Positions 5,508-22,543 are shown, numbered from the stretch's first letter. The stretch is DNA of 64,000 bases from an uncultured Planctomycetales bacterium (GCA_964583975.1 CAZOXU010000003.1:7805-71804); one strand, 5' to 3'. Translations and numbers: made by a program. The notes: generated by a model not told the origin, from the sequence alone.

Positions 5508-5552
5508 ATAACCTTGGTTTTCATCTAAAAAAATGTTACACTTTTCTTAGAT

Positions 5553-5879
5553 ATGAAAAAACTCATCTTATTTCTCTTACTAATTACCTTTTTATCTCCT
5601 CGCCTGGCTTTTTGTGAAATAACTCCTGCTGCCAAAGAACAAGTCGAGGCTGCTCAAGCTCAAATGATGAATGATCCAGAAATCATGAGTGATATCCAAG
5701 AAATGATGAAGGATCCTGAAATGGTCAAACTTTTAACCGACCCAGAGTTGATGAAGAAAGTTACTAGCCACGATCTTGAAGCCATTGCCAAAGACCCTAA
5801 GGCCCAAGAGCTCATGAGAAATCCCAAAATGCTCGAGCTCATTCAAAAAATGCAGAGCAAGGTCTCTTCCCAACAATAA
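5553..5879 (+). CDS. secreted protein with STI1/DP-like repeats
   Basis: Signal peptide MKKLILFLLLITFLSPRLAFC. Repeated DPE(I/M)M...(L/M)M motifs (MMNDPEIMSDIQEMMKDPEMVKLLTDPELMKKV). Confidence 0.55.
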   Translation: MKKLILFLLLITFLSPRLAFCEITPAAKEQVEAAQAQMMNDPEIMSDIQEMMKDPEMVKLLTDPELMKKVTSHDLEAIAKDPKAQELMRNPKMLELIQKMQSKVSSQQ

Positions 5880-5889
5880 TTAATTCTTT

Positions 5890-6924
5890 TTATTTTTGAT
5901 GCTGATGTCTTAACTGCCCACAGGCAGCAGCTACGTCGCGGCCGCGTGGTGTACGGATGGTGGCATGGATCCCAGCCTCTTCTAAGCTGTCTTTGAAAGC
6001 ATTCATAGCCTTGCCCGAAGGGGTCTTGTGGTCAAATTCTGAGACAGGATTGTAAGGAATTAAATTCATCTTGCAGACCAAGCCTTTGAAAGCTTTCTTT
6101 AAACTCTCAACTGCTTTGGCTGTACAAGTAACATCTTCGATCAGGATGTACTCAAAGGTCAACTGACGTTTGGTTGCTTTGAAAAAATCGTGGCAGGCTG
6201 CAATTAATTCATCAAAAGGATATTTACGATTAACCGGCATGAGTGTGTTACGTGATTCATTATCATATCCATGCAAGGAAATGGCCAATTCAATCTGCAG
6301 CCCTTGCTGGGCTAATTCTTTGATCTTAGGTACCAACCCAACGGTGGAGACAGTAATATGGCGCGCCCCAATATTAATCCCCTGATTGGAATTAATAATA
6401 CGTATGGCTCGCATGAGATTCTCAAAGTTATCCAAAGGCTCGCCTGTACCCATAAACACAATATTGGTCAGTGGTCGCTTATGCTTAAGGGCCTCTTCTT
6501 TCACATGAAGCACTTGAGCCACAATTTCTGCACAGGTCAAGTTTCTCGACCATCCACCGATACCGCTGGCACAAAACTTGCAGCCGAATTTGCATCCTGC
6601 TTGAGTAGAAATACAAGCTGTAGTGCGTGTGGCTGTAGGAATCAATACGCTTTCGATCTTTTCGTGATCATGTAGATCGAATAAGAATTTAGTAGTGCCT
6701 TCTTTGGAGATTTGCTTCTCAGCAATAGTATTAGGCTTAAAATCAAAATCGATTTTTAATCGGTCTCTGACGGATTTAGGGATATTGGGCATATCATCAA
6801 AAGACCACACGCCCTTTTGATAAATCCATTGGGCCACTTGTTGGGAGCGAAATGTTTTTTCACCGATGGATTCAAAATAACGAGCTAACTCTTCGAAGGA
6901 AAGATTGAGGATATCCTGCTTCAT
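5890..6924 (-). CDS. rlmN: 23S rRNA m2A2503 / tRNA m2A37 methyltransferase RlmN (radical SAM)
   Basis: 344 aa. CKFGCKFCASG radical-SAM cysteine triad. C-terminal catalytic Cys region. Confidence 0.85.
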   Translation of the reverse strand: MKQDILNLSFEELARYFESIGEKTFRSQQVAQWIYQKGVWSFDDMPNIPKSVRDRLKIDFDFKPNTIAEKQISKEGTTKFLFDLHDHEKIESVLIPTATRTTACISTQAGCKFGCKFCASGIGGWSRNLTCAEIVAQVLHVKEEALKHKRPLTNIVFMGTGEPLDNFENLMRAIRIINSNQGINIGARHITVSTVGLVPKIKELAQQGLQIELAISLHGYDNESRNTLMPVNRKYPFDELIAACHDFFKATKRQLTFEYILIEDVTCTAKAVESLKKAFKGLVCKMNLIPYNPVSEFDHKTPSGKAMNAFKDSLEEAGIHATIRTPRGRDVAAACGQLRHQHQK

Positions 6925-8723: not shown

Positions 8724-9182
8724 TTAATACAAAATTAGGGTGCAAATGATTCCAAATACAAAACCTGCCAGAACCTGTATGGGGGTGTGTCCCACTAGTT
8801 CTATAAGTCTTTTTTCTTGAAGATGCCCCATCCAAATGTCATCCATCATTTTATTAAGAATGGTAGCTTGTTGGCCAGCTGCTCGCCTGACTCCCTGCGC
8901 ATCAAACATAATGACAAGGGCAAACACAGAAGATATGGCGAACATAGCTCCATCAAATCCATCTTGTAACCCTACCGCTGTAGCCAAGGCTGTTACTCCA
9001 GCCGCATGACTCGAAGGCATTCCTCCTGTACCGATAAACCAACGAAAATTAAACTTCTTCTCCCTAATAACCCCCAAAATAACCTTGGTTGATTGAGCAA
9101 ATATCCAAACCAGCAGGGTTATGAAGAATATACGATTATGTAGGAATTCTCTGGCAAAGGAATGTGTTGTCTGCAGTTCCAT
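8724..9182 (-). CDS. divergent PAP2-family membrane protein (DUF212/YuiD-like)
   Basis: 152 aa, multi-TM. GGMPSSHAA phosphatase motif 2. Confidence 0.6.
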   Translation of the reverse strand: MELQTTHSFAREFLHNRIFFITLLVWIFAQSTKVILGVIREKKFNFRWFIGTGGMPSSHAAGVTALATAVGLQDGFDGAMFAISSVFALVIMFDAQGVRRAAGQQATILNKMMDDIWMGHLQEKRLIELVGHTPIQVLAGFVFGIICTLILY

Positions 9183-9383
9183 TAGTGCAATCTAATAAAA
9201 TATGACCCTTTCGCTTACGCTTCAGGGTTAACACTGAGTTTATTCGAAAATGTTGACGATAATACCTTAATTTGTTAGCCTGTATTATATCTTTGCTCCC
9301 CCAAAAAGCAAGGATTGGTTTCTTCAAGCTCCCCCCTTGTAATCCTAAAATTATCTAACTCCCCGTAAAATCTGAGGTTACGT

Positions 9384-10895
9384 ATGCTTGCCAAATCTTT
9401 TAGTTTTGCCCTGGCCGGGCTCGAGGCCTACTGCGTTACCATTGAAACCGACATAACCGATGGTCTTCCCCTAGTAACCATCGTTGGCCTGCCTGATAAT
9501 GCAGTCCGAGAAAGCCGCGAGCGAGTCAGGCTGGCCATTAAAAACAGCTCCTTGGGCTTTCCATCAGGACACCTAACCATCAATCTTGCCCCAGCTGATA
9601 TTAAAAAAGAAGGTCCGTCGTTTGATGTGGCCATTGCCTTAAGCGTGCTAGCCAGCAATGAACAAATCTCCTATGAATCCTTACGCCATTACGTTTTTTT
9701 AGGTGAGCTAGCACTCGATGGCAGCATCCGACCTATCAACGGAGCCCTTCCTATTGCCTTGGCCTGTGATCCTAAAGTATTTAAAGGTCTGATCGTTCCT
9801 GCAGCCAATGCCAAGGAAGCAGCCCTGGCTAATACGGTTAATATCTATGCTGCTAATTACCTTAAAGAAATTGTCCATTTTCTTTCTAACCCAGAGAGTA
9901 TAAAGCCAACCCCCTGCGAAGGAATAAATCTGCTTAATGAAAAAAGACGCTATCCCTTGGACTTTGCTGATGTCAAAGGCCAAATCCATGTCAAACGCGG
10001 TCTCGAAATTGCCGCGGCAGGCGGACACAACGTGCTAATGATCGGGCCACCAGGAAGCGGCAAAACCATGTTAGCCAAGCGCGTGCCCTCCATCTTACCT
10101 GATATGACCTTAAGTGAGGCCCTGGACATTACCAAGATCTATTCGGTGATGGGGCTTAACACCAAAGGCATTGTCACGGCTCGACCTTTTCGCTCGCCTC
10201 ATCACACAGCCTCGGATATTGCCTTGATTGGTGGCGGTTCAAACCCCAAACCCGGTGAAGTCAGCCTAGCCCATAACGGTGTTTTGTTTCTTGATGAATT
10301 AGGTGAATTCTCCAGGCATGTGCTGGAAGTTCTTCGCCAGCCCTTGGAAGATCATTGGGTAACCGTCTCCCGAGCCAGTCGAACGCTTCGCTTTCCAGCC
10401 GGCTTCATGCTGATTGCCGCAATGAACCCGTGTTTTTGTGGGTGGCTCATGAGCTCCCAGAGACGATGTCAATGCTCGCCAAACGATATCCAAAAATATC
10501 TCGCCAAAATTTCTGGCCCCATGCTTGATCGCATTGACCTACATCTACAAGTGCCAGGCCTTAAAACGCATGAGATGCTCCATGCTCCTTTAACTGAAAG
10601 TTCTAGTGAGATTAAACAACGGACAGCTAAGGCACGAAAGTTACAACAACGGCGTTTTAACAACACTAACGCCCACATGAATTCCGAACAATTAAAACAA
10701 TATTGTGCGCTTGATGAAGCTGCTCGCGAGCTCCTTAAAAAAGCGATTGATACGCTAGGTCTTTCGGCCCGCGCCCACGATAAGATTCTAAGAGTGGCTC
10801 GAACAATTGCGGATTTAGCAGACAGAGAAAACATCCAGCCCGAACATATTGCAGAGGCGATCAGCTATCGGGCGTTGGATAGGATACATCAATGA
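9384..10895 (+). CDS. comM: YifB/ComM family Mg-chelatase-like AAA+ ATPase
   Basis: 503 aa. N-terminal Lon-like domain. Walker A GPPGSGKT. C-terminal helical domain. Confidence 0.85.
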   Translation: MLAKSFSFALAGLEAYCVTIETDITDGLPLVTIVGLPDNAVRESRERVRLAIKNSSLGFPSGHLTINLAPADIKKEGPSFDVAIALSVLASNEQISYESLRHYVFLGELALDGSIRPINGALPIALACDPKVFKGLIVPAANAKEAALANTVNIYAANYLKEIVHFLSNPESIKPTPCEGINLLNEKRRYPLDFADVKGQIHVKRGLEIAAAGGHNVLMIGPPGSGKTMLAKRVPSILPDMTLSEALDITKIYSVMGLNTKGIVTARPFRSPHHTASDIALIGGGSNPKPGEVSLAHNGVLFLDELGEFSRHVLEVLRQPLEDHWVTVSRASRTLRFPAGFMLIAAMNPCFCGWLMSSQRRCQCSPNDIQKYLAKISGPMLDRIDLHLQVPGLKTHEMLHAPLTESSSEIKQRTAKARKLQQRRFNNTNAHMNSEQLKQYCALDEAARELLKKAIDTLGLSARAHDKILRVARTIADLADRENIQPEHIAEAISYRALDRIHQ

Positions 10896-11353
10896 GAAAA
10901 CCTTCTCGGAAGAATTTAAGATTGAAAAATTGGGATTATTCTTCGGCAGGATATTATTTTGTAACCATATGCACACAAAATCGTTTTCCATATTTAAAAA
11001 ATCCTGACATAAACAATATACTCCATCAAACGTGGTGTGAATTAAAACAGAAATATGACAATATTGTGTTGGATGAATTTATCATCCTGCCCAATCATAT
11101 TCATGGAATCATTATCATCGTAGGGGCGGACCTATGTGTCCGCCCACAATTAGGGTCGACCCCTACGTTGGGCGAAATGATCCGTTGGTTCAAAACAATG
11201 ACCACAAATTATTTTATTCACGGGGTAAATAAATCTGGATGGAAACCATTCTTGGGTAGATTATGGCAACGCAATTATTACGAACATATCATCCGTAATG
11301 AACGATCTCTTTACGACATGCGACGATATATCACACATAATCATATGGAATAA
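10892..11353 (+). CDS. REP-associated tyrosine transposase (RAYT; IS200/IS605-like Y1 HUH transposase)
   Basis: 153 aa. HUH motif LPNHIHGII. Catalytic Tyr region WQRNYYEHIIRN. ATG overlaps comM stop (ATGA). Confidence 0.7.
   Translation: MRKPSRKNLRLKNWDYSSAGYYFVTICTQNRFPYLKNPDINNILHQTWCELKQKYDNIVLDEFIILPNHIHGIIIIVGADLCVRPQLGSTPTLGEMIRWFKTMTTNYFIHGVNKSGWKPFLGRLWQRNYYEHIIRNERSLYDMRRYITHNHME
11120..11166. repeat. REP-like palindrome GTAGGGGCGGAC..GTCCGCCC..GGGTCGACCCCTAC embedded in-frame in the RAYT gene
   Basis: Perfect outer inverted repeat GTAGGGG/CCCCTAC and inner GGGCGGAC/GTCCGCCC. Encodes VGADLCVRPQLGSTPT, inserted between the HUH motif and the downstream conserved helix. Confidence 0.6.
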
Positions 11354-11368
11354 TTACCGTTGAAACAA

Positions 11369-11404
11369 AAAAGAGGTTATCGGTATTAGCGATAACCTCT
11401 TTTT
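11369..11404. terminator. bidirectional intrinsic terminator hairpin (AAGAGGTTATCG-GTATTAG-CGATAACCTCTT + T-run)
   Basis: 12-bp perfect stem flanked by A-run and T-run, between convergent genes (RAYT on plus, coiled-coil gene on minus). Confidence 0.7.
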
Positions 11405-11419
11405 AATTATAACCGTCTT

Positions 11420-14392
11420 CTACGAAGCGTTTTGAAGAGATTGGATCTTTTGTGTTAAATCTTGGACTTTTTTATTAAGAACCGTGATTTGCTTGCTCAG
11501 TTCTTGGGCTTGATCATTTTTATTCTTGGCTGCATCGCGGGCTTGTTCTACTTCTTTTCTAGCATCAGCCAGTTGTTGCTTTAAATCTTCTAAATTTCTC
11601 TGGTCTTTTTGAGCTGGCGTTAAGGCAACAGGCTTATTTTTTTCTTCTAACTGCATCTTAAGCCGGGCAATCTGCTTATCCTTGTAATAAATATCTTCCA
11701 TCAATTTTTCTATTTTAGCTTGGGTCTCTTTTAATTCTTTTTGGCGCACGCTATTGGTTAATTTATCTTGTTTCAACTGTTCAATTTGTTCATTGCTTTG
11801 CTTAAGGGAAGACTTTAATTCCTCAACTTCCTTAGTCGCTGACTTTACAAAAAGCTTGGTCTGTTCTACCTCAGACTGATCTACTGAATTCTTTAAACGT
11901 GTTTCTGCAACGGTCAACTTTTCTTGCAACTCTTCTAAACGCTTAGTTTGCTTGGTTAACTCTTCTTGGCTCACCGAATTCTTTAATTTTTGCTGAGCTG
12001 CTGCAAGTTTGTCACCAATCTCACTGAGTTCTGCTTTTTTATTGTCTAATGAAGCATTCAATAACGCCAACTGCTGATTCTTATCGCGTAATTCTTGAGT
12101 TTTTTCTGAAGATTTCTTCTCTAGTTCAAAGAAGAAAGCTTGTACCTTCTTTAAATCTTTGGTTTTTTGATCAATATCATCTTGGGCGGTCTGCAAATCA
12201 CCTTGCAACTTATTGATTTCCAAAACTCTGTCCTTGATTTGCACGTCTTTATCATCCATTTTTTGTTGATAAACATCTAACATGCTCTCTAACTGAGTCG
12301 CCTTGTCTCGGCTTTCTTGTAATTGTTTTTGCAAGCTTTCAACTTCTCCCTGCTTGTTGCCAACTTCCTTTTTAAAATTCTCCAGCTGACTATCATTTTT
12401 ACTGTTTAAATCTTGCCAATACACAACCGTCTTTTGCAATTCGTTTCGATAACGATCTGTATTATCTCGGTGCTTGATAGCTAATTGCAGCAGCAAATCG
12501 CATTTCTCAGCAGCTAAATCTTCTAAAATGCGATACTTAGATAGTAATTGATCTTCTAATTCCCCGCGTTCTTTCAGGCGTTGATATTCACTGACAATGC
12601 CTTTTAGATTTTCAATTTGTGCAGATAGACCTTTAATATTCTCCTGAAGATGTTTAACCATCCCCATATAGCTAGACTTGTCTTGCACATCTTTTTGTAG
12701 TTTAGATATCTGTGTATCTTTCTCTTGCAGATCTTTATCTTTAGCAGCCATTTGTCCTGTTAAGGATTTAATGGTCATTTGCTGCTTCTTATTTTGCTCT
12801 TGATATTCTTTTAAATCTGCTTGGGCTTGTTGCAATTGCTGTTTTAATTCGACAATGTTGCCCTTAATCCGGGTAAGATCTTCTAAATCTTTAAGCGCAG
12901 GTCTTTCTTGAAGTTGTTTTTGTAAGTCAACAACCATAGTGCCTTTTTCCTGCAAATCTTTTTCCTGAGAAGTTATTTGAGCGCTCAGGGCTTTAATGGT
13001 TGCTGTTTGCTTCTTAATATGCTCTTGATATTCCTTAAGATCTTCTTGTGAGTTTTGCAATTGATATGTTAAGGCTGCAATATCGCCTTTGACCTTAATT
13101 AAATCATTTTCTTGTGCATCCACATCTGCCGCGCGTCTTTTAGCAGCAGCTAACTGTCCTTTAAGATCAACGATCTTTTCACGAATCTGATCAAATCCCT
13201 GATTATAGTTGTCATAATTAGCACGCAGGTCTGTAACTTTCTGTCGGGTTTGAGTAATATCTTCATTAAGCACATTCATTAACTGTTGTTGGTTGACAAG
13301 TTCTTTTTCTTTGCCGGCAATCGCCTTGTCTTTTTCTTCAATTTGTCGTTGGGCTACAGACAATTGATCTTGGGCAGCTGCCAAATCTTTTTTAATTTGG
13401 ACCACATTGGCTGGCTCGGGTTGATTGGCTAATTGCTCATCTTTCTGGGCAATGATCTTGTCTTTATCAGCGATTTGCTTTTGTGCTTGCTGTAATTGTT
13501 CACGGGCAGCAGCTAAATCCCCTTTATACTGGGCGATCATCTGGTCTTTTTCGAGTAACAACTTTTCTAGCTCGCTAATTTTCTGGTCTTTTAAAGCTAA
13601 GGAAGCCTGATACTCACCAACACTTTTGATTTGAGCTTTTAAATTAGCAATGGTCTGTGCAACTTCTTCATTATCCGTATTTTTTGCGTTGTTATTTACG
13701 ACAGGTGCCGGCGATGCTTTGGATTGTTCGTAAAGCGCCTGTAATTTCTGCAATTGTTCCTTGGTATTGGCTAACTGTTCTTTATAGGAAGCAAGTTCTT
13801 GATACTTTTCTGAAAGAAATTTAATTTTAGAAACCAACTCTTCTTTTTGATTATCTAATCCTTCAACTAATTGCTGGGTCTGGGTGTTTGCAGTGGCTGG
13901 CAAATTCTTTAAACCTTCAACGTCCTTGGTTAACTTAATGACTTCATCAAATAAGTGTTCTAGCTTATCAATGCGAGCTCTTAAAAACGCTGTTTCTTCA
14001 TTACGGTGCATCATGCTGCGGTTACGTTCATCTAATTTTTGGCTATACTTCTCAAGTATTTCTTTTAGTTGGCTTAAGGTATTAACGGCAATGACCCAAT
14101 CGCCTGGTTTTCTCACCCCCGCATCGCGCACCACATTCTGCTGCATTCTTGAAATTGTTCCGATCAAAGCTGAATTTTCTTGGGCCAATTCACGAGCAAT
14201 AAGTTCTTCATCACGAAGGGTTCGTTCTTGATTAAGGGCATCTTTTTTTAACTGAACAACTTCATTATTTAACTCAAGAGCTCGCACATAAATCGGTGGA
14301 GCTTGGATAATCTCTGTAGCCGCCAAAACATTGGCAGGCACTGTATTTAACAAAAATAAAACTGATAGGGTACTATGAACAATTCTCTTCAT
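11420..14392 (-). CDS. secreted giant coiled-coil protein (990 aa)
   Basis: Signal peptide MKRIVHSTLSVLFLLNTVPANVLAA. Almost entirely heptad-like E/K/Q/L-rich sequence. Confidence 0.7.
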   Translation of the reverse strand: MKRIVHSTLSVLFLLNTVPANVLAATEIIQAPPIYVRALELNNEVVQLKKDALNQERTLRDEELIARELAQENSALIGTISRMQQNVVRDAGVRKPGDWVIAVNTLSQLKEILEKYSQKLDERNRSMMHRNEETAFLRARIDKLEHLFDEVIKLTKDVEGLKNLPATANTQTQQLVEGLDNQKEELVSKIKFLSEKYQELASYKEQLANTKEQLQKLQALYEQSKASPAPVVNNNAKNTDNEEVAQTIANLKAQIKSVGEYQASLALKDQKISELEKLLLEKDQMIAQYKGDLAAAREQLQQAQKQIADKDKIIAQKDEQLANQPEPANVVQIKKDLAAAQDQLSVAQRQIEEKDKAIAGKEKELVNQQQLMNVLNEDITQTRQKVTDLRANYDNYNQGFDQIREKIVDLKGQLAAAKRRAADVDAQENDLIKVKGDIAALTYQLQNSQEDLKEYQEHIKKQTATIKALSAQITSQEKDLQEKGTMVVDLQKQLQERPALKDLEDLTRIKGNIVELKQQLQQAQADLKEYQEQNKKQQMTIKSLTGQMAAKDKDLQEKDTQISKLQKDVQDKSSYMGMVKHLQENIKGLSAQIENLKGIVSEYQRLKERGELEDQLLSKYRILEDLAAEKCDLLLQLAIKHRDNTDRYRNELQKTVVYWQDLNSKNDSQLENFKKEVGNKQGEVESLQKQLQESRDKATQLESMLDVYQQKMDDKDVQIKDRVLEINKLQGDLQTAQDDIDQKTKDLKKVQAFFFELEKKSSEKTQELRDKNQQLALLNASLDNKKAELSEIGDKLAAAQQKLKNSVSQEELTKQTKRLEELQEKLTVAETRLKNSVDQSEVEQTKLFVKSATKEVEELKSSLKQSNEQIEQLKQDKLTNSVRQKELKETQAKIEKLMEDIYYKDKQIARLKMQLEEKNKPVALTPAQKDQRNLEDLKQQLADARKEVEQARDAAKNKNDQAQELSKQITVLNKKVQDLTQKIQSLQNAS

Positions 14393-14403
14393 GGGGATTA
14401 TCC

Positions 14404-14904
14404 TTATTGTGTGAGGTCTTTTTGTCCTTCGGCGATCTGACTCCTTAAGGCAGCTACTTGACTTTTAAGTTCACCAATGGATCGATCAGCTTCTTGAAGA
14501 TCATTTTTCAAATCTTCATTATTGTAGGTAGATTTAGTTACTTCTTGGGTTGCTTCTTTTTTAGGTTGTTCTACTATCTTCTTAACCACTCCCTTTGGGG
14601 TTACCATAATCGGTGCTGAAGCAATCACAGGATTAGTAGGCATAGGTGGAATCACAATTTGCTGTCCCTTGGCATTCAATTTCTTAGCATAGCTTCTGGC
14701 TGCGGAATTGGCTGGATCCATGGCTAGTATTCTCGAGAATATGGTAGCAGCTTGGGCGTAATCACCTCGATCATACACTGCCTGAGCATACTGGTAAAGT
14801 TGGGTGACTGCCAAGGATCGCATCGAACCTTGGTCTTGAGCAGCATTAACTGTAAAAGGAATTAATAAAAGGATAAGGACGATGATGGGAAATATTTTTT
14901 TCAT
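14404..14904 (-). CDS. secreted TPR-like / coiled-coil protein (166 aa)
   Basis: Signal peptide MKKIFPIIVLILLLIPFTVNA. TPR-like YAQAVYDRGDYAQAATIFSRILAMDP. 11 nt upstream of the coiled-coil gene (probable operon). Confidence 0.6.
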   Translation of the reverse strand: MKKIFPIIVLILLLIPFTVNAAQDQGSMRSLAVTQLYQYAQAVYDRGDYAQAATIFSRILAMDPANSAARSYAKKLNAKGQQIVIPPMPTNPVIASAPIMVTPKGVVKKIVEQPKKEATQEVTKSTYNNEDLKNDLQEADRSIGELKSQVAALRSQIAEGQKDLTQ

Positions 14905-15012
14905 AATTATAAACCGTTGTAAATAAATAACTTATGTTATTCTTGGTTAATGAGAGTTAGTTGATGTTTTTATCAAACTTGAGGAAGTATAACATCCCTG
15001 ATAGCCAAATGC

Positions 15013-15060
15013 AAGTAGGGGCCCTGTGTGGTCTTCCACTATAAAGATAAGCCCTACGGC
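15013..15060. repeat. REP element (GTAGGGGCC...GCCCTAC)
   Basis: gtaggggccctgtgtggtcttccactataaagataagccctacgg. Same GTAGGGGC/GCCCTAC termini as the mutS-flanking REPs. Confidence 0.5.
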
Positions 15061-15064
15061 AGGA

Positions 15065-17839
15065 TTATTTTCTATTTTTATCTTTTGAAGTATCCACCTT
15101 CTCACTCATTTTCTTTTTAATCTTGGTAAAACTAACTGTGTTCGTCTTGGTGCTTTTTTGCACAATCTTTTCTGGAGACTTGATGGGTTGTGGTGAAGCA
15201 TTTTTAAGAGTACCCGTGCCAGGAGTAGTCGAACCAGAAGTAAAGCTTGCTCCAGAGCTTGATCCACCCGATTCTGGGCCAGGACCAGAGCCAGAACCAG
15301 AACCCGAGCCAGAACTTGAACCAGAACCCGAGCTAGAACTTGAACCAGAACCCGAGCCTGAGCCTCCCGAAGGATTGCTAATCACATAATTAAAGCTTTG
15401 CGGTGTTGTTCCTGCCCATGTCCTTATCTTAATATTGTAGGTGGTCGCAGGAGCATAATTGGGCGCATGTAAAACAATGCTCGTTGGAGAGACTGAGTGA
15501 ACATATAGCATGTCAAGGTTATATTGCCGGCCCATGTAAGTCAATAACACATTGTTCCAATTATTAGTATATTCACTTAAATTTCCCAAATTCACTCCTG
15601 TGATCGTGATATAAGCTTCGACACCTGCAACGCCTGTCGTAGAGCTTATACTTGTCAAAGATGGTAAATAAGCGGGGTCTTGATTAACCACAAGATTGAC
15701 TGCCGCACTTATTTGTCCACCTGGATTTTCAACAAAAACATTATATGTCCCAGCAAAAAACTGGGCTGGGAACATGAAATCTATTCGGCCAGGATTAACA
15801 AAAGTCACCTTATTACTATCAACATAAACTGAACCCACATTCGGCAAAGTAAGTTTTACCTTGGCTGCAGGATCTAAATTAGCACCCTCAATATGAATAG
15901 GGATTTCCTGAAGACCATTTTGAATATTATTAGGAACAAGACCATTGATGGTTGGTGGAGTACTGCCAGAAGAACTATACTCATACACACCCGCATCAGG
16001 CAAACCAACACGTGGGTTCCCCTTCAAATCAGTCGCAGGAGCCACAGCACTTAAACCCACATCAATATTGGGACTGGTAGGCATTGGAGCAAAGTTATAA
16101 AGCCAGCTCGTCATTCGATAGTTTATATTGAAATCTGCAAATTGCGGATCACCCAAGACATTGTTTCTAAATTGAGGTCGGTAGGATTGATTCTGCATAT
16201 CAGCTAAATCATATCCGTAAGCATTCGGACACCACGAGAACGTATGCGGACCGCTTGTAGCCCCCACCCCCGTATCATTACAGACTAACATGCCTGCTTG
16301 GTCATGTCCGACGGCATGAGAGTCTCGATAAAAAACATTATTTTCTATATGAAATTCTTGCAAATCATTAACAAATCCCAATCCATACCCAAAACGAATT
16401 GGATAATTACTTTGCGAGCGCATAATATTATTCTTTATTTCAAAATTTTCGTGAGAATAAGGAATTGGCAGTGCTTCTCCATGTTGAATATTGATAGCCG
16501 AATATTCCCCCCCGCCACCATTTTGCCCATTTGTCCCACTTAAACCCAAAAGAATATTATTAATGATCTTAATATTCTTAAGTGGCCGCTGCATAGACAT
16601 TCCATCTTCATTCCAAAAAGTAAGAGCATTTCTTCCAACGTTAAAGATTAAGTTGTTTTCAATAAGCATATCTTGAGTTCCATTTTTAACCTCAATGCCT
16701 TCCCAGGCAGTTCCCCAAATCATATTTCCCTTGATAATAACATTTGTGCCATCGCGCAAATGAATACCGTGACCTCCTTCGTGACCACAATAATTTAATC
16801 TGCTATTTTCAACTTTAAAATATGTGTCGGTGGCATTTAAAGGATGACCAAAGGCAGGGTACATATTTCCATTTTTATATAAACAATGCTCGTAGCCTGT
16901 GTCATGAATAGTAATATTATCTAATGTAACGTAATGACGTTGATATCCCCCTGTCCAAAACATGCCCCATCTGTCACCATTTCTAAATTCACTGTTTTTT
17001 ATGGTGACATGAGAAAAATTATCCCCCATTAATGCCACCCGATAAACCAAATGCTGCGAATCATACCTGCCATCAAATTCAAAACCATCAATAATGACAT
17101 GTTGTGTGGTGGGTGTAATACCAAATATATTATCTACGTTTGCTAATCCTGGCTTAAAAATGACCCGCTTGCCTGGTTCATTCATAATAACAATGGGCCT
17201 CTCTTGTGTTCCCTGATAACCTACCGAATAAGTTCCAACTCCTGGTGCCCAACCGTAATGAGAAAGAGTATTTAATCCCCCAGAAGTGTTTGTAACAAAA
17301 TATGTCCCTTCCAGATAAACTATAACATCTCCTGGTAACACGACAGCAGGCCCATAATAGGGTGTAGGAACGCTATTTAAATATGGCAGGTTAATATTAT
17401 TTGGTTGTGCCGTGCTATTATTCCCATTGGGTGAAACAAAGAAAACATTACCGATTTCATGGGTATAACCAATATCATGCAAATAATTTTTAAAATTCTG
17501 AATGTTGGTAAATGAACCATAGCGAGCAGTTACTGAAGCCGGTGTATTAATAGTCGAATCATTATCATTAGCATCAGGAGCCATGTGCTCGGGATTAGGA
17601 TTGACATTGAAAAGCGGAGTAATCACACTCCCATCTCGATTACCTGTGCTGATATATCCATCGCCATCATTATCTGTATTAAAAACATCGGTATGCCCTT
17701 TTCCTAAATAGGGGAATTGCGTAGCGAAAGCCTTCTTAGCCCCACCCATACTTAAAAGAAGTGCAGCTAAAATGATCAGTAGATATATTTTTATATTGGT
17801 ATTATTTTGGATATGAAATATTGCCATAGTTCTGTACAT
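15065..17839 (-). CDS. secreted right-handed parallel beta-helix repeat protein with C-terminal Gly/Ser linker and Lys-rich tail
   Basis: 924 aa. N-terminal signal/TM. Many NxxxG/asparagine-ladder beta-helix repeats (NNLIFNVGRNALTFWNEDG...IINNILLG). 60-aa SG(S/G)n linker. KKxK tail. Confidence 0.7.
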   Translation of the reverse strand: MYRTMAIFHIQNNTNIKIYLLIILAALLLSMGGAKKAFATQFPYLGKGHTDVFNTDNDGDGYISTGNRDGSVITPLFNVNPNPEHMAPDANDNDSTINTPASVTARYGSFTNIQNFKNYLHDIGYTHEIGNVFFVSPNGNNSTAQPNNINLPYLNSVPTPYYGPAVVLPGDVIVYLEGTYFVTNTSGGLNTLSHYGWAPGVGTYSVGYQGTQERPIVIMNEPGKRVIFKPGLANVDNIFGITPTTQHVIIDGFEFDGRYDSQHLVYRVALMGDNFSHVTIKNSEFRNGDRWGMFWTGGYQRHYVTLDNITIHDTGYEHCLYKNGNMYPAFGHPLNATDTYFKVENSRLNYCGHEGGHGIHLRDGTNVIIKGNMIWGTAWEGIEVKNGTQDMLIENNLIFNVGRNALTFWNEDGMSMQRPLKNIKIINNILLGLSGTNGQNGGGGEYSAINIQHGEALPIPYSHENFEIKNNIMRSQSNYPIRFGYGLGFVNDLQEFHIENNVFYRDSHAVGHDQAGMLVCNDTGVGATSGPHTFSWCPNAYGYDLADMQNQSYRPQFRNNVLGDPQFADFNINYRMTSWLYNFAPMPTSPNIDVGLSAVAPATDLKGNPRVGLPDAGVYEYSSSGSTPPTINGLVPNNIQNGLQEIPIHIEGANLDPAAKVKLTLPNVGSVYVDSNKVTFVNPGRIDFMFPAQFFAGTYNVFVENPGGQISAAVNLVVNQDPAYLPSLTSISSTTGVAGVEAYITITGVNLGNLSEYTNNWNNVLLTYMGRQYNLDMLYVHSVSPTSIVLHAPNYAPATTYNIKIRTWAGTTPQSFNYVISNPSGGSGSGSGSSSSSGSGSSSGSGSGSGSGPGPESGGSSSGASFTSGSTTPGTGTLKNASPQPIKSPEKIVQKSTKTNTVSFTKIKKKMSEKVDTSKDKNRK
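15255..15370. repeat. GGYTCNGAR-type simple repeat encoding (SGSG)n linker
   Basis: ccagaacccgagccagaacttgaaccagaa... repeated units. Antisense reads PEPEPE. Confidence 0.7.
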
Positions 17840-18072
17840 ATTTTTGCCTCCTAAAACCTTTTTAATTCAAGACGACTCTAGTTCAAATATATCATCTCAA
17901 GGAGTGAATAACAAGGCTTTGAACCCCCAACTGAGAAAACGCTTCCTGATAGATAAAATATATGTAATATGCTCATATTAAATAAGTTATAGAAAGTACT
18001 AAAATATCTGAAATGTTAAATTCATATAAAGATTTAATTTATCGAGAAAATGATCCGTTCTTTTTCTTGCAT

Positions 18073-18135
18073 GTAGGGGCCGGCCTCTGTGCCTGCCCTT
18101 TTGATTATTGGGCAACCACGGAGGGTTGCCCCTAC
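18073..18135. repeat. REP doublet (REPIN-like): GTAGGGGCCGGCCTCTGTGCCTGCCC - spacer - GGGCAACCACGGAGGGTTGCCCCTAC
   Basis: Two REP units in inverted orientation upstream of mutS. Confidence 0.65.
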
Positions 18136-18183
18136 ATTTTTCTAATTTACCTAAATTAATTTCTATGTTATAAAGATGCGCTT

Positions 18184-20700
18184 ATGGAAACAACCCCCAT
18201 GCTTAAGCAGTACCATGAAATCAAATCCCGACATAAAGATGCGATCGTTTTTTTTCGTCTAGGTGATTTTTATGAAATGTTCTTTGATGATGCCAAGGAT
18301 GCTTCGTCTATTCTTGATCTGGTCTTAACTTCTCGCGGGCAGGATGCCAGTCGAGTTCCCATGTGTGGCATACCTTATCATGCCTGCGAAGGGTATATCT
18401 CCAAACTGATCAAGGCTGGCCGTAAAATTGCCATCTGTGAGCAAGTGGAAGACCCTGCTGTGGCCAAGGGCATTGTCCGACGCGATGTGATTCGGGTCAT
18501 TTCAGCTGGCACATATCTAGATGAAGAAACCCGGACCCGCTACCTGCTTTCTCTATATATAGGCAAAAATGGGCTAGGCTTTAGCTTTTGCGATAATACC
18601 AGTGGCGTTCTCTGGGCCAATGAAGTAACTAATTCCAGGATCGCCTTAGAATCAATCTCTAAACTGGCCATTTACGAATGTGTTTATCCAGCAGCCCAGG
18701 AAGAACAGATTCGTTCTTTATTTGCCCACCCTCTTTTGAAACTTAAGAATGTTACCCTAAGCCCCATGGAAGACTGGCATTTTCATTTTGATGCCGCTAA
18801 CCAAAATCTCTGCGCCCACTTTGAAGTATTAAATCTCAATGGTTTTGGATTAGAAAATAAGAATTCGGCCATTGCCTGCGCCGGTGCTCTCTTAGAATAC
18901 TTACGCACAGCCAACAAAACTCCTTTGAAACATATTCACCGCATGGCTCTTTACACGGCCGATGATTATGTTTTTATCTCTCCTGCAGCACACTATGGAC
19001 TAGAACTTGAAGAAGTTTTAAAGACCTTGGATCTAACGCAGACATCTATGGGGCATCGCTTATTTCGATTTTGGATGTTTCATCCGCTTAAGAATATCCA
19101 GGCGATTGCTGATCGTCAAAGCGCCATCCAAACACTCAATAAGGCAAAAACCCGTAATAAAATCAACGAATGCTTGCAAAATATGCCTGATTTGGAAAAA
19201 GCACTATCAAGAATCAGCTGTGGCTGCTGCAGCATCAAAGATATCTTAAACCTACGTAATGGACTTTTACGTGGGCCGCTAATCCAAGAAAACCTGACAC
19301 CCATGAATCATCCTCTGTTAATGGTGCATGATTTAACGGCCTTACGCGATCTTTTAACACGCACCATCGATCCTGAAACTCCTTTAGCCAAACCTGAAGG
19401 AAAAATCATTCTACCGGGCATCGATAAAGAATTAGATGAATTACGCAATCTACAAGATAACAGCCGCACCTGGCTAGCTAATTATCAGGCTGAAGAAATT
19501 CGACGCACAGGGATCAATTCTTTAAAAGTTGGTTTTAATAATGTCTTTGGCTATTACCTGGAAATTACCAAGACCCATCAAAAGTCTGCCCCGGCTAATT
19601 ACATCCGTAAACAAACCCTGGCAAATGCTGAACGCTATATCACCCCTGAACTTAAAGAATATGAGGAGAAATTCCTTACAGCCCAGGATAAAATTTTAAG
19701 TATTGAACGGCGAATCCTTAATTCCATAGAAAAAGCCATTCTTTTAGAAGTCAATCAGCTACATGCCTATGCTTCACAAATTGCTCACCTGGACTGTCTG
19801 TTGTCTCTTTGCACTTTGAGTCAACGGCCAGGTTATGTCTTTGCTCAAGTCAATGATTCCATGACCATTGATATCCGAGATGGTCGACATCCAGTGGTGG
19901 AAAAGACCGTAACTGAAAATTTTATTGCCAATGACACCTTGCTCGATGATACCGATAATCATTTGATCATCTTAACCGGTCCTAATATGGCTGGCAAAAG
20001 TACCTACATTCGCCAGACGGCCATTTTAGTTCTAATGGCTCAGATGGGCGCACCGATTCCGGCTGGCTCGGCCACGATTGGTTTGGTTGATAAAATCTTC
20101 ACCCGCATCGGCGCTCATGATGATATTGCCAAAAACCAAAGCACATTCATGGTGGAAATGACCGAGGCTGCTGATATTCTCAATAATCTGACAGCCCGCT
20201 CGCTAGTAATTCTTGATGAAATCGGACGTGGAACTTCCACCAGCGATGGGCTCTCCTTGGCCTGGGCCTTGGCAGAACATTTCCAGAAGCAAAAAGCCCG
20301 CACGTTATTTGCCACCCATTTTCATGAACTAGTGGCTCTAGCCGATAGACTCCCTGGAATTAAAAATTACAACGTGGCTGTGAAAGAATGGCGAGATCAA
20401 ATTATATTTATGCATAAGATTGTGGCTGGTGGCTGTGATGATTCCTACGGAATTTATGTGGCTAAACTGGCTGGTATTCCAGAAAGCGTGATCAAGCGTT
20501 CAAAAGCAATCTTAAGTGAATTAGAACTTGGGAGCACAACGCCAATAAAACGGCATGAACGACAGATTGATCTGTTTACACCTCATTCTGATCCTGTATT
20601 GGAAGATTTGCGCTCGGTTGTGGAAGCCATTGATATCAACAATATAACACCGCTAGATGCGTTAAAGAAATTGGATGAGATAAAACGCAAATTAACGTAG
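18184..20700 (+). CDS. mutS: DNA mismatch repair protein MutS
   Basis: 838 aa. N-terminal mismatch-binding domain. Walker A GPNMAGKST. Walker B/DE, C-terminal HTH. Stop codon TAG forms the first bases of the downstream REP. Confidence 0.9.
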   Translation: METTPMLKQYHEIKSRHKDAIVFFRLGDFYEMFFDDAKDASSILDLVLTSRGQDASRVPMCGIPYHACEGYISKLIKAGRKIAICEQVEDPAVAKGIVRRDVIRVISAGTYLDEETRTRYLLSLYIGKNGLGFSFCDNTSGVLWANEVTNSRIALESISKLAIYECVYPAAQEEQIRSLFAHPLLKLKNVTLSPMEDWHFHFDAANQNLCAHFEVLNLNGFGLENKNSAIACAGALLEYLRTANKTPLKHIHRMALYTADDYVFISPAAHYGLELEEVLKTLDLTQTSMGHRLFRFWMFHPLKNIQAIADRQSAIQTLNKAKTRNKINECLQNMPDLEKALSRISCGCCSIKDILNLRNGLLRGPLIQENLTPMNHPLLMVHDLTALRDLLTRTIDPETPLAKPEGKIILPGIDKELDELRNLQDNSRTWLANYQAEEIRRTGINSLKVGFNNVFGYYLEITKTHQKSAPANYIRKQTLANAERYITPELKEYEEKFLTAQDKILSIERRILNSIEKAILLEVNQLHAYASQIAHLDCLLSLCTLSQRPGYVFAQVNDSMTIDIRDGRHPVVEKTVTENFIANDTLLDDTDNHLIILTGPNMAGKSTYIRQTAILVLMAQMGAPIPAGSATIGLVDKIFTRIGAHDDIAKNQSTFMVEMTEAADILNNLTARSLVILDEIGRGTSTSDGLSLAWALAEHFQKQKARTLFATHFHELVALADRLPGIKNYNVAVKEWRDQIIFMHKIVAGGCDDSYGIYVAKLAGIPESVIKRSKAILSELELGSTTPIKRHERQIDLFTPHSDPVLEDLRSVVEAIDINNITPLDALKKLDEIKRKLT

Positions 20701-20759
20701 GGGCAACCCCCCGTGGTTGCCCAATAATTAAAAGGGCAGACACAGGGGCCTGCCCCTAC
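20697..20759. repeat. REP doublet, reverse-complement arrangement of the upstream doublet
   Basis: GTAGGGGCAACCCCCCGTGGTTGCCC - spacer - GGGCAGACACAGGGGCCTGCCCCTAC. Together with 18073..18135 forms an inverted pair bracketing mutS. Confidence 0.65.
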
Positions 20760-20773
20760 GAATTGGAAACAAA

Positions 20774-22543
20774 ATGCCCGTAAAAATATTACCCCCCGAA
20801 GTCATTGCTAAAATCGCCGCTGGTGAAGTGGTTGAACGTCCAGCTTCGGTAGTCAAAGAATTGATTGAAAACTCAATCGATGCCGGGGCTAAAGCAATCG
20901 AGATCCATTTAAAAGATGCTGGTAAGGAATTGATCCATATTAAAGACGATGGCTGCGGGATCGCTAAAGAAGATCTTGAGCAAATTTTTCAGCGTCATGC
21001 CACAAGCAAACTTCGATCGATTGATGATTTAGAAAAGCTCGCTTCGATGGGATTTCGTGGTGAAGCTCTTTACTCTGTTGCTGCTGTCTCAGACATCATC
21101 TTACGCAGTAAGGTCACTTCCAAGGACGGCTGGGAAATACATTTACAAGGCAGCAAGCGCCTAGAGCTCAAACCAACTGCTCTGTCTGGCCCTGGCACAG
21201 AAATCAAGATCACCCAGCTTTTTTTTAATACACCGGCCCGTCGTAAATTTCTTAAAAGCACTACCTCTGAAATGCAGCAGATTTTTAATGTGGTTTTCCC
21301 TTATACGCTTTTGTATCCCCAAAAACATTTTGTGTTAACTCACGCTGGTAAATCTATGTTGGATGTCAGGCCTGCTATCTGCGCTGTTGATCGTATGGCT
21401 GAAGCTCTCAATCTGGAGAGCCGTGATTTGATCGAAGCCACCCAGGATTTTGCTGATCTCAATGCCCAGGTGCGCATGCTCTTAAGCAATATCAATGTGC
21501 AGCGCCCACGCCGGGATTTGCAGTTTATCTTTGTGAATAATCGCCCTGTAGAGAACAAAAACTTGAGCTTTAACATTAATGATATTTATCGTTTGATTCT
21601 GCCGCCTGGGGTTTATCCGGCCTTTGTCTTAGATATACAAATTGATCCAGCAGAAGTTGATGTGAATATTCACCCAACCAAACGTGAGGTGCGTATTCGC
21701 CAAGAATCTAGATTAGTCTCGTTTGTACGTCATATGACTGAGTACACGCTTCTGCAGCAAGGACAAGCTAAGGCACTCACCAGTTTACCAGTTAATCCTT
21801 CGTGGATCAGTGATACTACACCAGCCCAGAACATTACGTCCCCTGAACAAATCGTCTTTGATCCCACAGGAGAACAAGCTTCCTTTTCACCCAGCTCTTA
21901 CTCAACGTCTGGGCGTAACTTTGAAGCCAGTCACTGGCAAAGCGCTGTTCCTCAGGACCTTTTTAAATCATCGGATAATTTACACAACAAATTTGCGAAA
22001 GCGCGCTACGTAGGGCAATTCATCAACAAATATCTGATTTTTGAAGCTGATCAATCGTTATTTTTAGTCGACCAGCATGCAGCGCAAGAACGTATTATGT
22101 TTGAAAAATTCCAGAATCAAATTGAACAAGGAAAGATAGAAATTCAACCGCTTCTAACACCCGTTTTGCTTAAACTGTCTGCTTCTGAAAAAATCGCTTG
22201 GGAAGAGTCAGGTGAGAAATTAAAAGAAGTAGGGATTGAAACGTCGCTGTTTGATGACGATACACTGGCCATCCAAACTCAGCCTGTGCTTCTTAAAAAG
22301 ATTGATATTACTGTTCGAACACTTCTTGCTGGCGATGCTATTAGCCGCTGTGATCGTGCCACTATCGCTAGGCGTGCTTGCAAGGCCTCTATTGTCACAG
22401 GTGATCGACTGGATAGCACGCAGGCTGATTATCAACGTCGCCAACTTCTAGCCTGTCACGATCCTTTCACCTGTCCACACGGCCGACCCACGGTTGTAGA
22501 AATCAAAGAATCCTTTCTGGATCGACAGTTCTTACGGACATAA
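20774..22543 (+). CDS. mutL: DNA mismatch repair protein MutL
   Basis: 589 aa. GHKL ATPase N-terminus (ELIENSIDAGA, DDGCGI). C-terminal dimerisation domain; no endonuclease DQHA(X)2E(X)4E motif seen, though DQHAAQERIMFE is present, so it may be endonuclease-proficient. Confidence 0.85.
   Translation: MPVKILPPEVIAKIAAGEVVERPASVVKELIENSIDAGAKAIEIHLKDAGKELIHIKDDGCGIAKEDLEQIFQRHATSKLRSIDDLEKLASMGFRGEALYSVAAVSDIILRSKVTSKDGWEIHLQGSKRLELKPTALSGPGTEIKITQLFFNTPARRKFLKSTTSEMQQIFNVVFPYTLLYPQKHFVLTHAGKSMLDVRPAICAVDRMAEALNLESRDLIEATQDFADLNAQVRMLLSNINVQRPRRDLQFIFVNNRPVENKNLSFNINDIYRLILPPGVYPAFVLDIQIDPAEVDVNIHPTKREVRIRQESRLVSFVRHMTEYTLLQQGQAKALTSLPVNPSWISDTTPAQNITSPEQIVFDPTGEQASFSPSSYSTSGRNFEASHWQSAVPQDLFKSSDNLHNKFAKARYVGQFINKYLIFEADQSLFLVDQHAAQERIMFEKFQNQIEQGKIEIQPLLTPVLLKLSASEKIAWEESGEKLKEVGIETSLFDDDTLAIQTQPVLLKKIDITVRTLLAGDAISRCDRATIARRACKASIVTGDRLDSTQADYQRRQLLACHDPFTCPHGRPTVVEIKESFLDRQFLRT

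Follow-up and report, generated by a model that had tools for sequence, protein, structure and literature searches.

Why does the gene of a REP-associated tyrosine transposase (RAYT) carry a repetitive extragenic palindrome (REP) inside its own coding sequence? The question is raised by an open reading frame (ORF) at 10892-11353, plus strand, in a stretch of 64,000 nucleotides from an uncultured Planctomycetales bacterium (GCA_964583975.1 CAZOXU010000003.1:7805-71804); this whole stretch is called the window here and positions are counted from its first letter. A first-pass annotation had noticed a palindrome at 11120-11166 of the ORF and suggested either a REP that inserted into its own transposase or a self-recognition hairpin. 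Our answer, to which we give a probability of about three in four, is that the gene encodes a RAYT of subclass 2.4 with an inherited, in-frame, head-out pair of REPs in the loop between strand β3 and helix αC, and that these internal REPs are live cognate sites of the enzyme. In-frame REPs inside tnpA_REP have already been described as a hallmark of TnpA_Y1 subclass 2.4, the equivalent of RAYT Group 4 of Bertels et al. (2017), by Quentin, Siguier, Chandler and Fichant (2018, BMC Genomics 19:475, PMC6006769), and the window gene is one further example. Our full-text literature search found no publication on internal REPs after that one. What we add to the published account is the head-out architecture of the pair, its independence of reading frame and the covariation of REP type with protein subgroup; these are increments and do not make a new class. 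As a single gene that repeats a published peculiarity, the window RAYT changes little. The pattern across the family is modestly important, as a rare case of a coding gene with a nucleic-acid structure that is conserved independently of the peptide and that is the presumed substrate of the encoded enzyme. With its 153 residues and one perfect internal REP, the apparently intact window member would be a convenient object for testing whether such a REP is a passenger or a working part.

The RAYT and its internal REP pair

The element of 47 nt is in frame and reads GTAG-GGGCGGAC-CTATGT-GTCCGCCC-ACAATTA-GGGTCGACCC-CTAC, with 62% G+C compared to 33% in the remainder of the ORF; its first letters are GTAGGGG and its last are CCCCTAC. 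Its left part is a REP on the plus strand (11120-11145), in which a GTAG foot (11120-11123) precedes a perfect 8-bp stem with a 6-nt loop, GGGCGGAC-CTATGT-GTCCGCCC, and which is translated as V77-G-A-D-L-C-V-R-P85. It is built like the GTAG-type REPs, with a GT[AG]G foot at a G+C-rich hairpin based on three G-C pairs, and folded as DNA the hairpin (11124-11145) reaches -9.9 kcal/mol (z -4.7). An AT-rich spacer, ACAATTA (11146-11152, plus strand), leads to the remnant of a second, inverted REP (11153-11166, minus strand), recognized by alignment with a relative and consisting of GGGTCGACCC and a CTAC foot, which is GTAG on the minus strand. The 10-nt GGGTCGACCC folds no better than its shuffles (z -0.9), so that folding, which had been proposed as a check of the palindrome, bears out the left hairpin and not the right one. 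The entire element folds into two separate hairpins, and none of 200 shuffles folds as well. It had been described as a perfect nested palindrome over all 47 nt; in fact only the hairpin at 11124-11145 is perfect, and for the outer arms the complementarity over 17 nt is 82%.

We found 6622 homologues of the RAYT protein and aligned 35 of them from many phyla. Eighty loci were studied in genomes, and the segment from the HuH motif to the WFKT motif could be extracted in 75. Counting as a REP only a GT[AG]G foot with a perfect stem of at least 7 bp within the ORF, at least one internal REP is present in 58 of the 75 loci and at least two in 37, while about a quarter of the homologues have no internal REP and retain the catalytic motifs. 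The first REP is nearly always GTAG-footed on the coding strand and the last ends in CTAC, which makes a head-out inverted pair with a spacer of variable length. Most of the 35 aligned proteins have 'VGADLC/RVC/RP ... G.H.G.PL' or '...APT' at the same position. Where homologues share this peptide their DNA is palindromic too, and the opposite case had been named at the outset as grounds for giving up the idea of a REP. In length the segment can be zero or exceed 45 residues, and tandem copies occur in some homologues. We also observed that in loci such as L030, L072, L028, L031 and L016 the spacer between the REPs has often grown because REP arms or short units were duplicated in tandem ('ENADLRVCPENADLCVCP', six times 'QPLGEQ', three times 'GQPREINN'), which gives the loop the look of a small growing repeat array. 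A GT[AG]G-footed REP stands within 1000 nt on either side of the gene in 31 of the 75 loci, and in 20 loci the flanking and internal REPs have the same stem.

The closest relative with available DNA, locus L081 (72% amino acid identity), reads GTAGGGGCGGACCTATGTGTCCGCCC-ACAATCA-GGGTCGAC-ACACAG-GTCGACCC-CTAC. Its left REP is identical to that of the window and its right REP is intact. Compared with the latter, the window has a gap of 12 nt, in which one arm and the loop were lost, and this is consistent with a deletion between GGTCGAC direct repeats. Judged from these alignments, the REP pair was inherited with the gene lineage and no fresh insertion took place. The initial view of a REP inserted into its own transposase is therefore right in that a REP lies within a transposase gene, but such an event was neither recent nor local, since most homologous loci share the element. 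L081 also contains a third REP (L081:1022-1051), GGGTGGCC-GCAA-GGCCACCC-CTAC, which encodes the last nine codons of its RAYT and abuts the TAA stop; the window RAYT does not have this tail and ends earlier.

What kind of enzyme carries the element? The ORF matches Pfam Y1_Tnp (PF01797) over residues 20-149 (E 8e-7, 29.6 bits against a cut-off of 23) and its best NCBIfam match is REP_Tyr_transpos (E 1.7e-18), in agreement with the RAYT identity proposed at first. The best 120 of the 6622 homologues all carry the signature WQRNYYEH / WFKTMTTN. When the profile of the 35 homologues was compared with the structures of the PDB, 4ER8, the TnpA_REP of E. coli, was the sole sequence match. The AlphaFold (AF2) model of the protein (pLDDT 88) also has 4er8_A as its top match (E 1.4e-7, TM 0.66), followed at ranks 2-30 of the fold search by HUH-Y1 structures of the IS200/IS605 type. 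The HuH motif is formed by H69-I70-H71 (11096-11104, plus strand) inside NHIH (N68-H71); both histidines are invariant among the 35 homologues and align to the HMH of 4ER8, near H63, the position being approximate. Seventy-five residues beyond H71 lies the catalytic Y146 (11327-11329), with the metal ligand N150 (11339-11341) in the motif YITHN(H) (11327-11341, plus strand). Y146 is invariant, N150 nearly so, and their equivalents in 4ER8 are Y115 and N119; the protein stops 7 residues past the tyrosine. Between these motifs the block W125-Q126 ... E131-H132 ... R135 (11264-11296, plus strand) aligns in the profile comparison with W94/Q95/E100/H101/R104, the residues which contact the GTAG foot in E. 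coli TnpA_REP (PMC6006769). Taken together, the ORF is best described as a RAYT-type Y1 HUH enzyme that fits subclass 2.4 (Group 4) better than the other groups, as far as sequence features can tell.

In the AF2 model a strand at residues 69-76 is followed by a stretch without secondary structure (77-92) and then by a helix (93-115), with pLDDT below 50 at residues 81-87. The profile alignment to 4ER8 is interrupted right after the HuH strand and restarts at the WQ block. Because both the model and this break place the element there, the REP-encoded segment V77-T92 is probably a disordered surface loop directly behind the HuH strand. The helix αC, L93-H115 ('LGEMIRWFKTMTTNY...', 11168-11236, plus strand), is the first conserved part after the loop, W99, F100, K101, T102 and T105 being conserved in the 35 homologues. 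The element had been placed between the HUH motif and the catalytic tyrosine helix. This holds insofar as it is in frame and follows the HuH strand, but it is situated about 55 residues ahead of Y146 and not beside the tyrosine helix, because αC and strand β4 intervene. The alignment proposed as a check confirmed that the segment is extra relative to both REP-less homologues and E. coli TnpA_REP. The distance from the strand to 'LG..WFKT' is 16 residues here and 7 in the REP-less homologues, so the net gain is about 9 residues and not the 12 estimated earlier.

Conservation of the hairpin and of the peptide

Is it the DNA hairpin or the encoded loop that has been preserved in the family? To avoid circularity, we selected segments of 27 nt by GT[AG]GGG alone, ignoring the 3' arm, and obtained 73 distinct sequences. 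In these, 92.3% of the cells pair, compared with 78.1% after shuffling and 32-57% with slid partners. Changes on both sides of a pair were seen in 91 cells where 25.8 were expected, a value reached by none of 500 shuffles. The three variable stem positions alternate among GC, AU and CG pairs with few G-U pairs; the pair 9-22, for instance, is GC in 33 segments and AU in 28. The alternation of Cys and Arg in the peptide can be traced to this pairing, because the variable base pairs with the silent third position of the Ala codon on the other side of the stem.

The reading frames point in the same direction. For the right REP two frames are used equally often (28 cases each), with unrelated peptides as the result (..GSPL and ..SAPT); for the left REP there are three frames, with 52, 3 and 1 cases. 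Between the window and L081, only 1 of 47 positions differs in the element, compared with 95 of 409 elsewhere in the gene (p 2e-4), and at third codon positions the numbers are 0 of 15 and 50 of 137 (p 0.003). Compensated stems and two frames of the right REP together mean that DNA, not peptide, is conserved. On these comparisons, the conserved feature is the DNA hairpin, and the peptide VGADLCVRPQLGSTPT is a by-product of the REP DNA.

The first-pass annotation had called the palindrome REP-like, and it has indeed proved to be a REP. At least 120 metagenome stretches contain exact copies of the left REP's 26-mer. In the 80 of these that we examined there are 84 occurrences, 5 within a RAYT gene, 1 beside one and 78 without a detectable RAYT on the piece, so this REP is dispersed mostly away from RAYT genes. 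A head-out partner lies within 120 nt for 33 of the 84. The stop-free frames across these copies have a median of 134 codons, a value which is probably inflated by G+C-rich contigs, and we describe the copies as lying away from RAYT genes and not as extragenic.

In the genome loci the type of REP loop and stem follows the subgroup of the RAYT as defined by αC. RAYTs with WFKT have 6-nt loops of the form CT.... or CC.... and commonly the stems CAGAC, CGAAC, CGGAC and CGCAC; those with AFKS have 5-nt loops (12 of 12) and mixed stems; those with RFKS have mostly loops CC.... (16 of 19) and commonly the stems CAGGC and CAACC. The window RAYT is of the WFKT type and its CGGAC/CTATGT is as expected for this subgroup. 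Two other REP pairs were found in the window, both intergenic and head-out like REPINs. The first (18073-18135) is GTAG-GGGCCGGC..GCCTGCCC / GGGCAACC..GGTTGCCC-CTAC, with a fold of -19.9 kcal/mol (z -5.6), and the second (20697-20759) is its inverse (-20.1 kcal/mol as DNA, z -4.3). Both have 63 nt and fold as one long hairpin. They have the termini GTAGGGGC/GCCCCTAC and the architecture in common with the internal element, and in this respect it is correct that the element is the same as the genomic REPs. The stems are another matter, being CNGGC and CAACC in the intergenic pairs and CGGAC and TCGAC within the gene. The intergenic combination is of the RFKS type, and the hairpin at 20701-20722 is identical to the internal hairpin of another RAYT locus (L050). 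The window contains neither a second RAYT that could match the intergenic subtype nor a second copy of the internal stem type.

Weighing the explanations

How well does the window gene agree with the published subclass? Quentin et al. (PMC6006769) give for subclass 2.4 the motifs NH[IFV]H, WQ and YIxNNP, a variable insertion between β3 and αC, an insertion of 8 residues at the end of αB, and a median distance of 88 residues from HuH to Y, which is 58-67 in most subclasses; they also describe REPs with a 'double foot' and a patchy, transfer-like distribution over many phyla. The window RAYT and its homologues share NH[IFV]H and WQ, the variable β3-αC insertion made of frame-keeping REPs with GT[AG]G feet, GGG/CCC stem bases, the 'double foot' ends GTAG...CTAC and the patchy occurrence over many phyla, and like subclass 2.4 they have no conserved C-terminal extension. 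The window protein differs in its length of 153 residues against a mean of 194, and its gene differs in the 12 nt missing from the right REP, in the stop/start overlap with comM/yifB and in its host, which is probably a member of the Omnitrophota and thus not of the phyla named as typical in PMC6006769.

Several observations weigh against our answer. The NCBIfam score of 66.9 bits is under the curated cut-off of 80 for the equivalog NF047646, a model which we take to be based mostly on proteobacterial RAYTs. The tyrosine motif is YITHNH and not YIxNNP: Y, I and the second N are retained, whereas His stands in place of both the first N and the nearly invariant Pro; in the closest homologues the motif is YIRNNP or YINNNP. 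Most subclass 2.4 genes have flanking REPs, and no GT[AG]G-footed hairpin is found here outside the ORF within 1 kb (9892-12353). The right-hand REP of the window gene is crippled. As the 64 kb hold only two further REP pairs, both of another stem subtype, a dispersed family matching the internal REP is unsupported in this genome. Elsewhere in the gene, too, short stretches show no substitution relative to L081, and the match with L081 could stem from recent gene conversion by another REP copy instead of selection. Finally, neither PMC6006769 nor PMC8266576 reports biochemistry for subclass 2.4 enzymes, cleavage being known for groups 2 and 3.

The best-studied enzyme for comparison is E. coli TnpA_REP (4ER8; REPtron, subclass 2.2 or Group 2). 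Apart from the fold, the HuH motif and an Asn four residues after the Tyr, the window protein has in common with it the W/Q/E/H/R set for GTAG contact, and the E. coli substrate is a GTAG-footed hairpin of single-stranded DNA (ssDNA). The identity is only 20%, the E. coli gene is flanked by REPs and contains none, its protein has a C-terminal extension, and its REPs need a bulged stem for activity (PMC8266576) whereas the stems here are perfect. According to Corneloup et al. (2021, PMC8266576), the enzymes of groups 2 and 3 recognize GTAG and the hairpin on ssDNA and cleave at a CT or CA close by. We hypothesize that the left REP of the window gene, as ssDNA, would likewise form a GTAG-footed hairpin which the encoded enzyme binds and cuts beside. 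The self-recognition hairpin suggested at first would be a possibility. The internal REPs may be live cognate sites because both the putative GTAG contacts W125/Q126/E131/H132/R135 and the catalytic H69/H71/Y146/N150 are all present. Selection acting on the DNA, or else exchange with further copies of the REP, would keep them intact, and they would be tolerated since the loop sits away from the active site. The most likely benefit would perhaps be the joint inheritance of enzyme and substrate as one unit.

Other known systems resemble the locus in part. As in REPINs (Bertels and Rainey 2011, PMC3116915), two inverted REPs with a short spacer are present, and the intergenic elements of the window fold as one hairpin. 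Unlike in REPINs, the internal pair lies inside an ORF and its halves have different stems, with the right one truncated; because of these stems, pairing between the halves is limited to the 7-nt termini and no single long hairpin is formed. REPINs have so far been tied to Group 2 and 3 RAYTs (PMC5581495). Di Nocera et al. (2013, PMC3733652) described REPs that lie in frame in unrelated genes, and such intragenic REPs and the Rickettsia palindromic elements add 20-30 residues in frame, presumably in tolerant loops. Those elements are scattered over sites and genes; here, position and orientation are fixed across a family whose gene encodes the REP-processing enzyme itself. The TnpA proteins of IS200/IS605 (IS608, ISDra2), insertion sequences (IS), have the HUH-Y1 fold too and recognize subterminal ssDNA hairpins through a 5' guide tetranucleotide. 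We rejected membership in IS200/IS605: the NCBIfam IS200 score is 20.7 bits (E 3.6e-4) against a cut-off of 55, no IS ends are found, the gene is present in a single copy in the window, and the third ligand is Asn and not Gln.

Could the hairpins be more than tolerated sites, that is, a cis-element retained by selection for autoregulation through a DNA or mRNA hairpin, for shutting the gene off by self-cleavage or excision, or as a seed copy after transfer that founds a REP population? This is the alternative that survives best, and we regard it as possible, though clearly less likely than our answer. The constraint acts at the level of DNA, synonymous sites included, the stems are compensated in 73 distinct segments, the head-out pair persists across phyla, REP type and protein subgroup vary together, and subclass 2.4 has a patchy distribution that resembles transfer (PMC6006769). 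However, the homologues without an internal REP have kept their catalytic motifs, the right REP is truncated here, and Quentin et al. modelled the insertions as a peripheral extension and considered them likely neutral (PMC6006769). Moreover, exchange between REP copies could keep hairpins perfect without any benefit. A bolder version, in which the in-frame pair is the selected part and a subclass 2.4 RAYT is a self-contained unit that seeds REPs after transfer or senses and limits itself, we hold only tentatively, at odds somewhat lower again.

It is rather improbable that the hairpin serves at the RNA level, as a stabilizer, pause or processing site of a comM-RAYT mRNA, roles that have been suggested for transcribed REPs. 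The hairpin would form in RNA too, the gene is probably co-transcribed with comM, and REPs are known to influence the fate of mRNA in other bacteria (PMC3733652). Against this, the GTAG feet are kept on opposite strands of the pair, which fits recognition of DNA on either strand and not of one transcript, and G-U pairs are few. An Rfam scan of 9000-22000 gave no match above the threshold; the sub-threshold matches, miRNA-like and snoRNA-like, were on the two intergenic pairs only and are chance resemblances to the shape of a hairpin.

Nor do we give much credit to a recent private insertion, in which a REP from the dispersed set of this genome would have moved into the transposase gene and kept the frame by chance. 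The high G+C content of the element in an AT-rich gene, the termini and two-hairpin layout that it shares with the elements at 18073 and 20697, and the intragenic REP insertions known in other genes (PMC3733652) would all agree with such an event. What makes it very unlikely is that L081, whose left REP is identical, and the majority of homologues in different phyla have the element at this very codon position, and that its stems differ from those of the intergenic pairs, which are typical of another RAYT subgroup.

The same low odds apply to selection on the peptide, according to which a Cys/Arg/Pro-rich loop (GADLCVRP...) contacts metal or DNA and the palindrome is a side effect. The recurrence of VGADLCV(C/R)P in many homologues and the predominance of one frame for the left REP (52 of 56) speak for it. 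The right REP, however, is read equally in two frames with unrelated products, the Cys/Arg alternation tracks a silent base, the loop is predicted to be disordered, has anything from 0 to over 45 residues and includes tandem duplications, and the 26-mer is found mostly away from RAYT genes. A chance palindrome can be dismissed: inverted repeats of small size are frequent, with 15 pairs in 551 nt, but the folding of the element is not matched by shuffles, GTAGGGG occurs 11 times in the 64 kb where 2.9 are expected, and the metagenome copies and the covariation are hardly accidental.

The comM junction and other sites in the window

The RAYT gene directly follows a gene of the comM/yifB family (9384-10895, plus strand) for a Mg-chelatase-like AAA ATPase, which matches Pfam Mg_chelatase, ChlI and Mg_chelatase_C as well as TIGR00368 (628 bits, above the cut-off). 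As had been read correctly from the start, the two genes overlap: the comM stop TGA (10893-10895) and the RAYT start share ATGA at 10892-10895, and a Shine-Dalgarno-like AGGA (10881-10884) lies inside the upstream gene, 7 nt before the ATG (junction 10881-10895, plus strand). The RAYT is probably co-transcribed with comM/yifB, its translation starting at the overlap, and the arrangement suggests that the two genes may be translationally coupled. In this genome the overlap speaks for co-expression of the RAYT with comM; a functional tie to ComM is not supported. Beyond the RAYT, an inverted repeat with 14-nt arms (11372-11405, 93% complementary), followed by TTTTT and not GTAG-footed, is probably a bidirectional terminator shared by the RAYT and a convergent gene for a coiled-coil protein of 990 residues (11420-14392). 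A scan for consensus promoters and terminators, whose counts were no different from those of shuffled sequence, did not pick up the hairpin at 11372-11400.

ComM is 71-76% identical to its counterparts in named metagenome-assembled genomes of Candidatus Omnitrophota, its closest named relatives, and the order YkuD/LysM - DUF212 - comM - coiled-coil gene - mutS is conserved in relatives. By these two measures the organism probably belongs in or near Candidatus Omnitrophota. Does the RAYT belong to this neighbourhood? No RAYT follows comM in four relatives (L082, L085, L086 and the P0123 contig). In another Omnitrophota locus, L084, a RAYT of 181 residues (5524-6069) directly follows comM with a TAATG stop/start overlap and has its own head-out REP pair (5793-5848) of another type, with 8-bp stems and 3-nt loops. 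As the RAYTs of L084 and the window are 45% identical and the ComM proteins 75%, common descent of the two insertions is uncertain; the same figures raise the question of repeated targeting of the 3' end of comM. The empty site of L082 is a 41-nt spacer between comM and the convergent coiled-coil gene, and it holds a GTAG...CTAC 'double-foot' hairpin, GTAGGGAACAGGCAAGCCTGCTCCCTAC (5551-5578), which either was left behind by a RAYT/REP unit now lost or is an independent REP in this position. A tblastn search with ComM found no comM near any of 81 RAYT loci, so the link to comM is not a feature of the RAYT family, and the closest homologues of the window RAYT adjoin other genes; the case of L084 came to light only when relatives of ComM were taken as the starting point. 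If subclass 2.4 RAYTs were the self-contained units considered above, the RAYTs at the 3' end of comM in two Omnitrophota genomes and the REP footprint in a third would be traces of a gene that itself moves under the guidance of REPs and prefers certain sites.

The two intergenic REP pairs flank an ORF (18184-20700) with the N-terminus METTPMLKQYHE, whose syntenic gene in L082 has MutS domains. The TAG stop of this ORF lies within the GTAG foot of the second pair, and 14 nt further on an ORF with a MutL-like N-terminus begins (20774-22543). Two other places in the window recall REPs. At 15015-15058, between the ORFs 14404-14904 and 15065-17839, GTAGGGGCCCTGTGTGGTCTTCC...AAGCCCTAC resembles a decayed REP pair in which foot and loop were retained and the stems were lost. 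Lastly, at 40991-41062 the G+C content rises to at least 65% over 40 nt within AT-rich surroundings; this island, with a CCCCTAC end at 41044-41050, may be a degraded REP.

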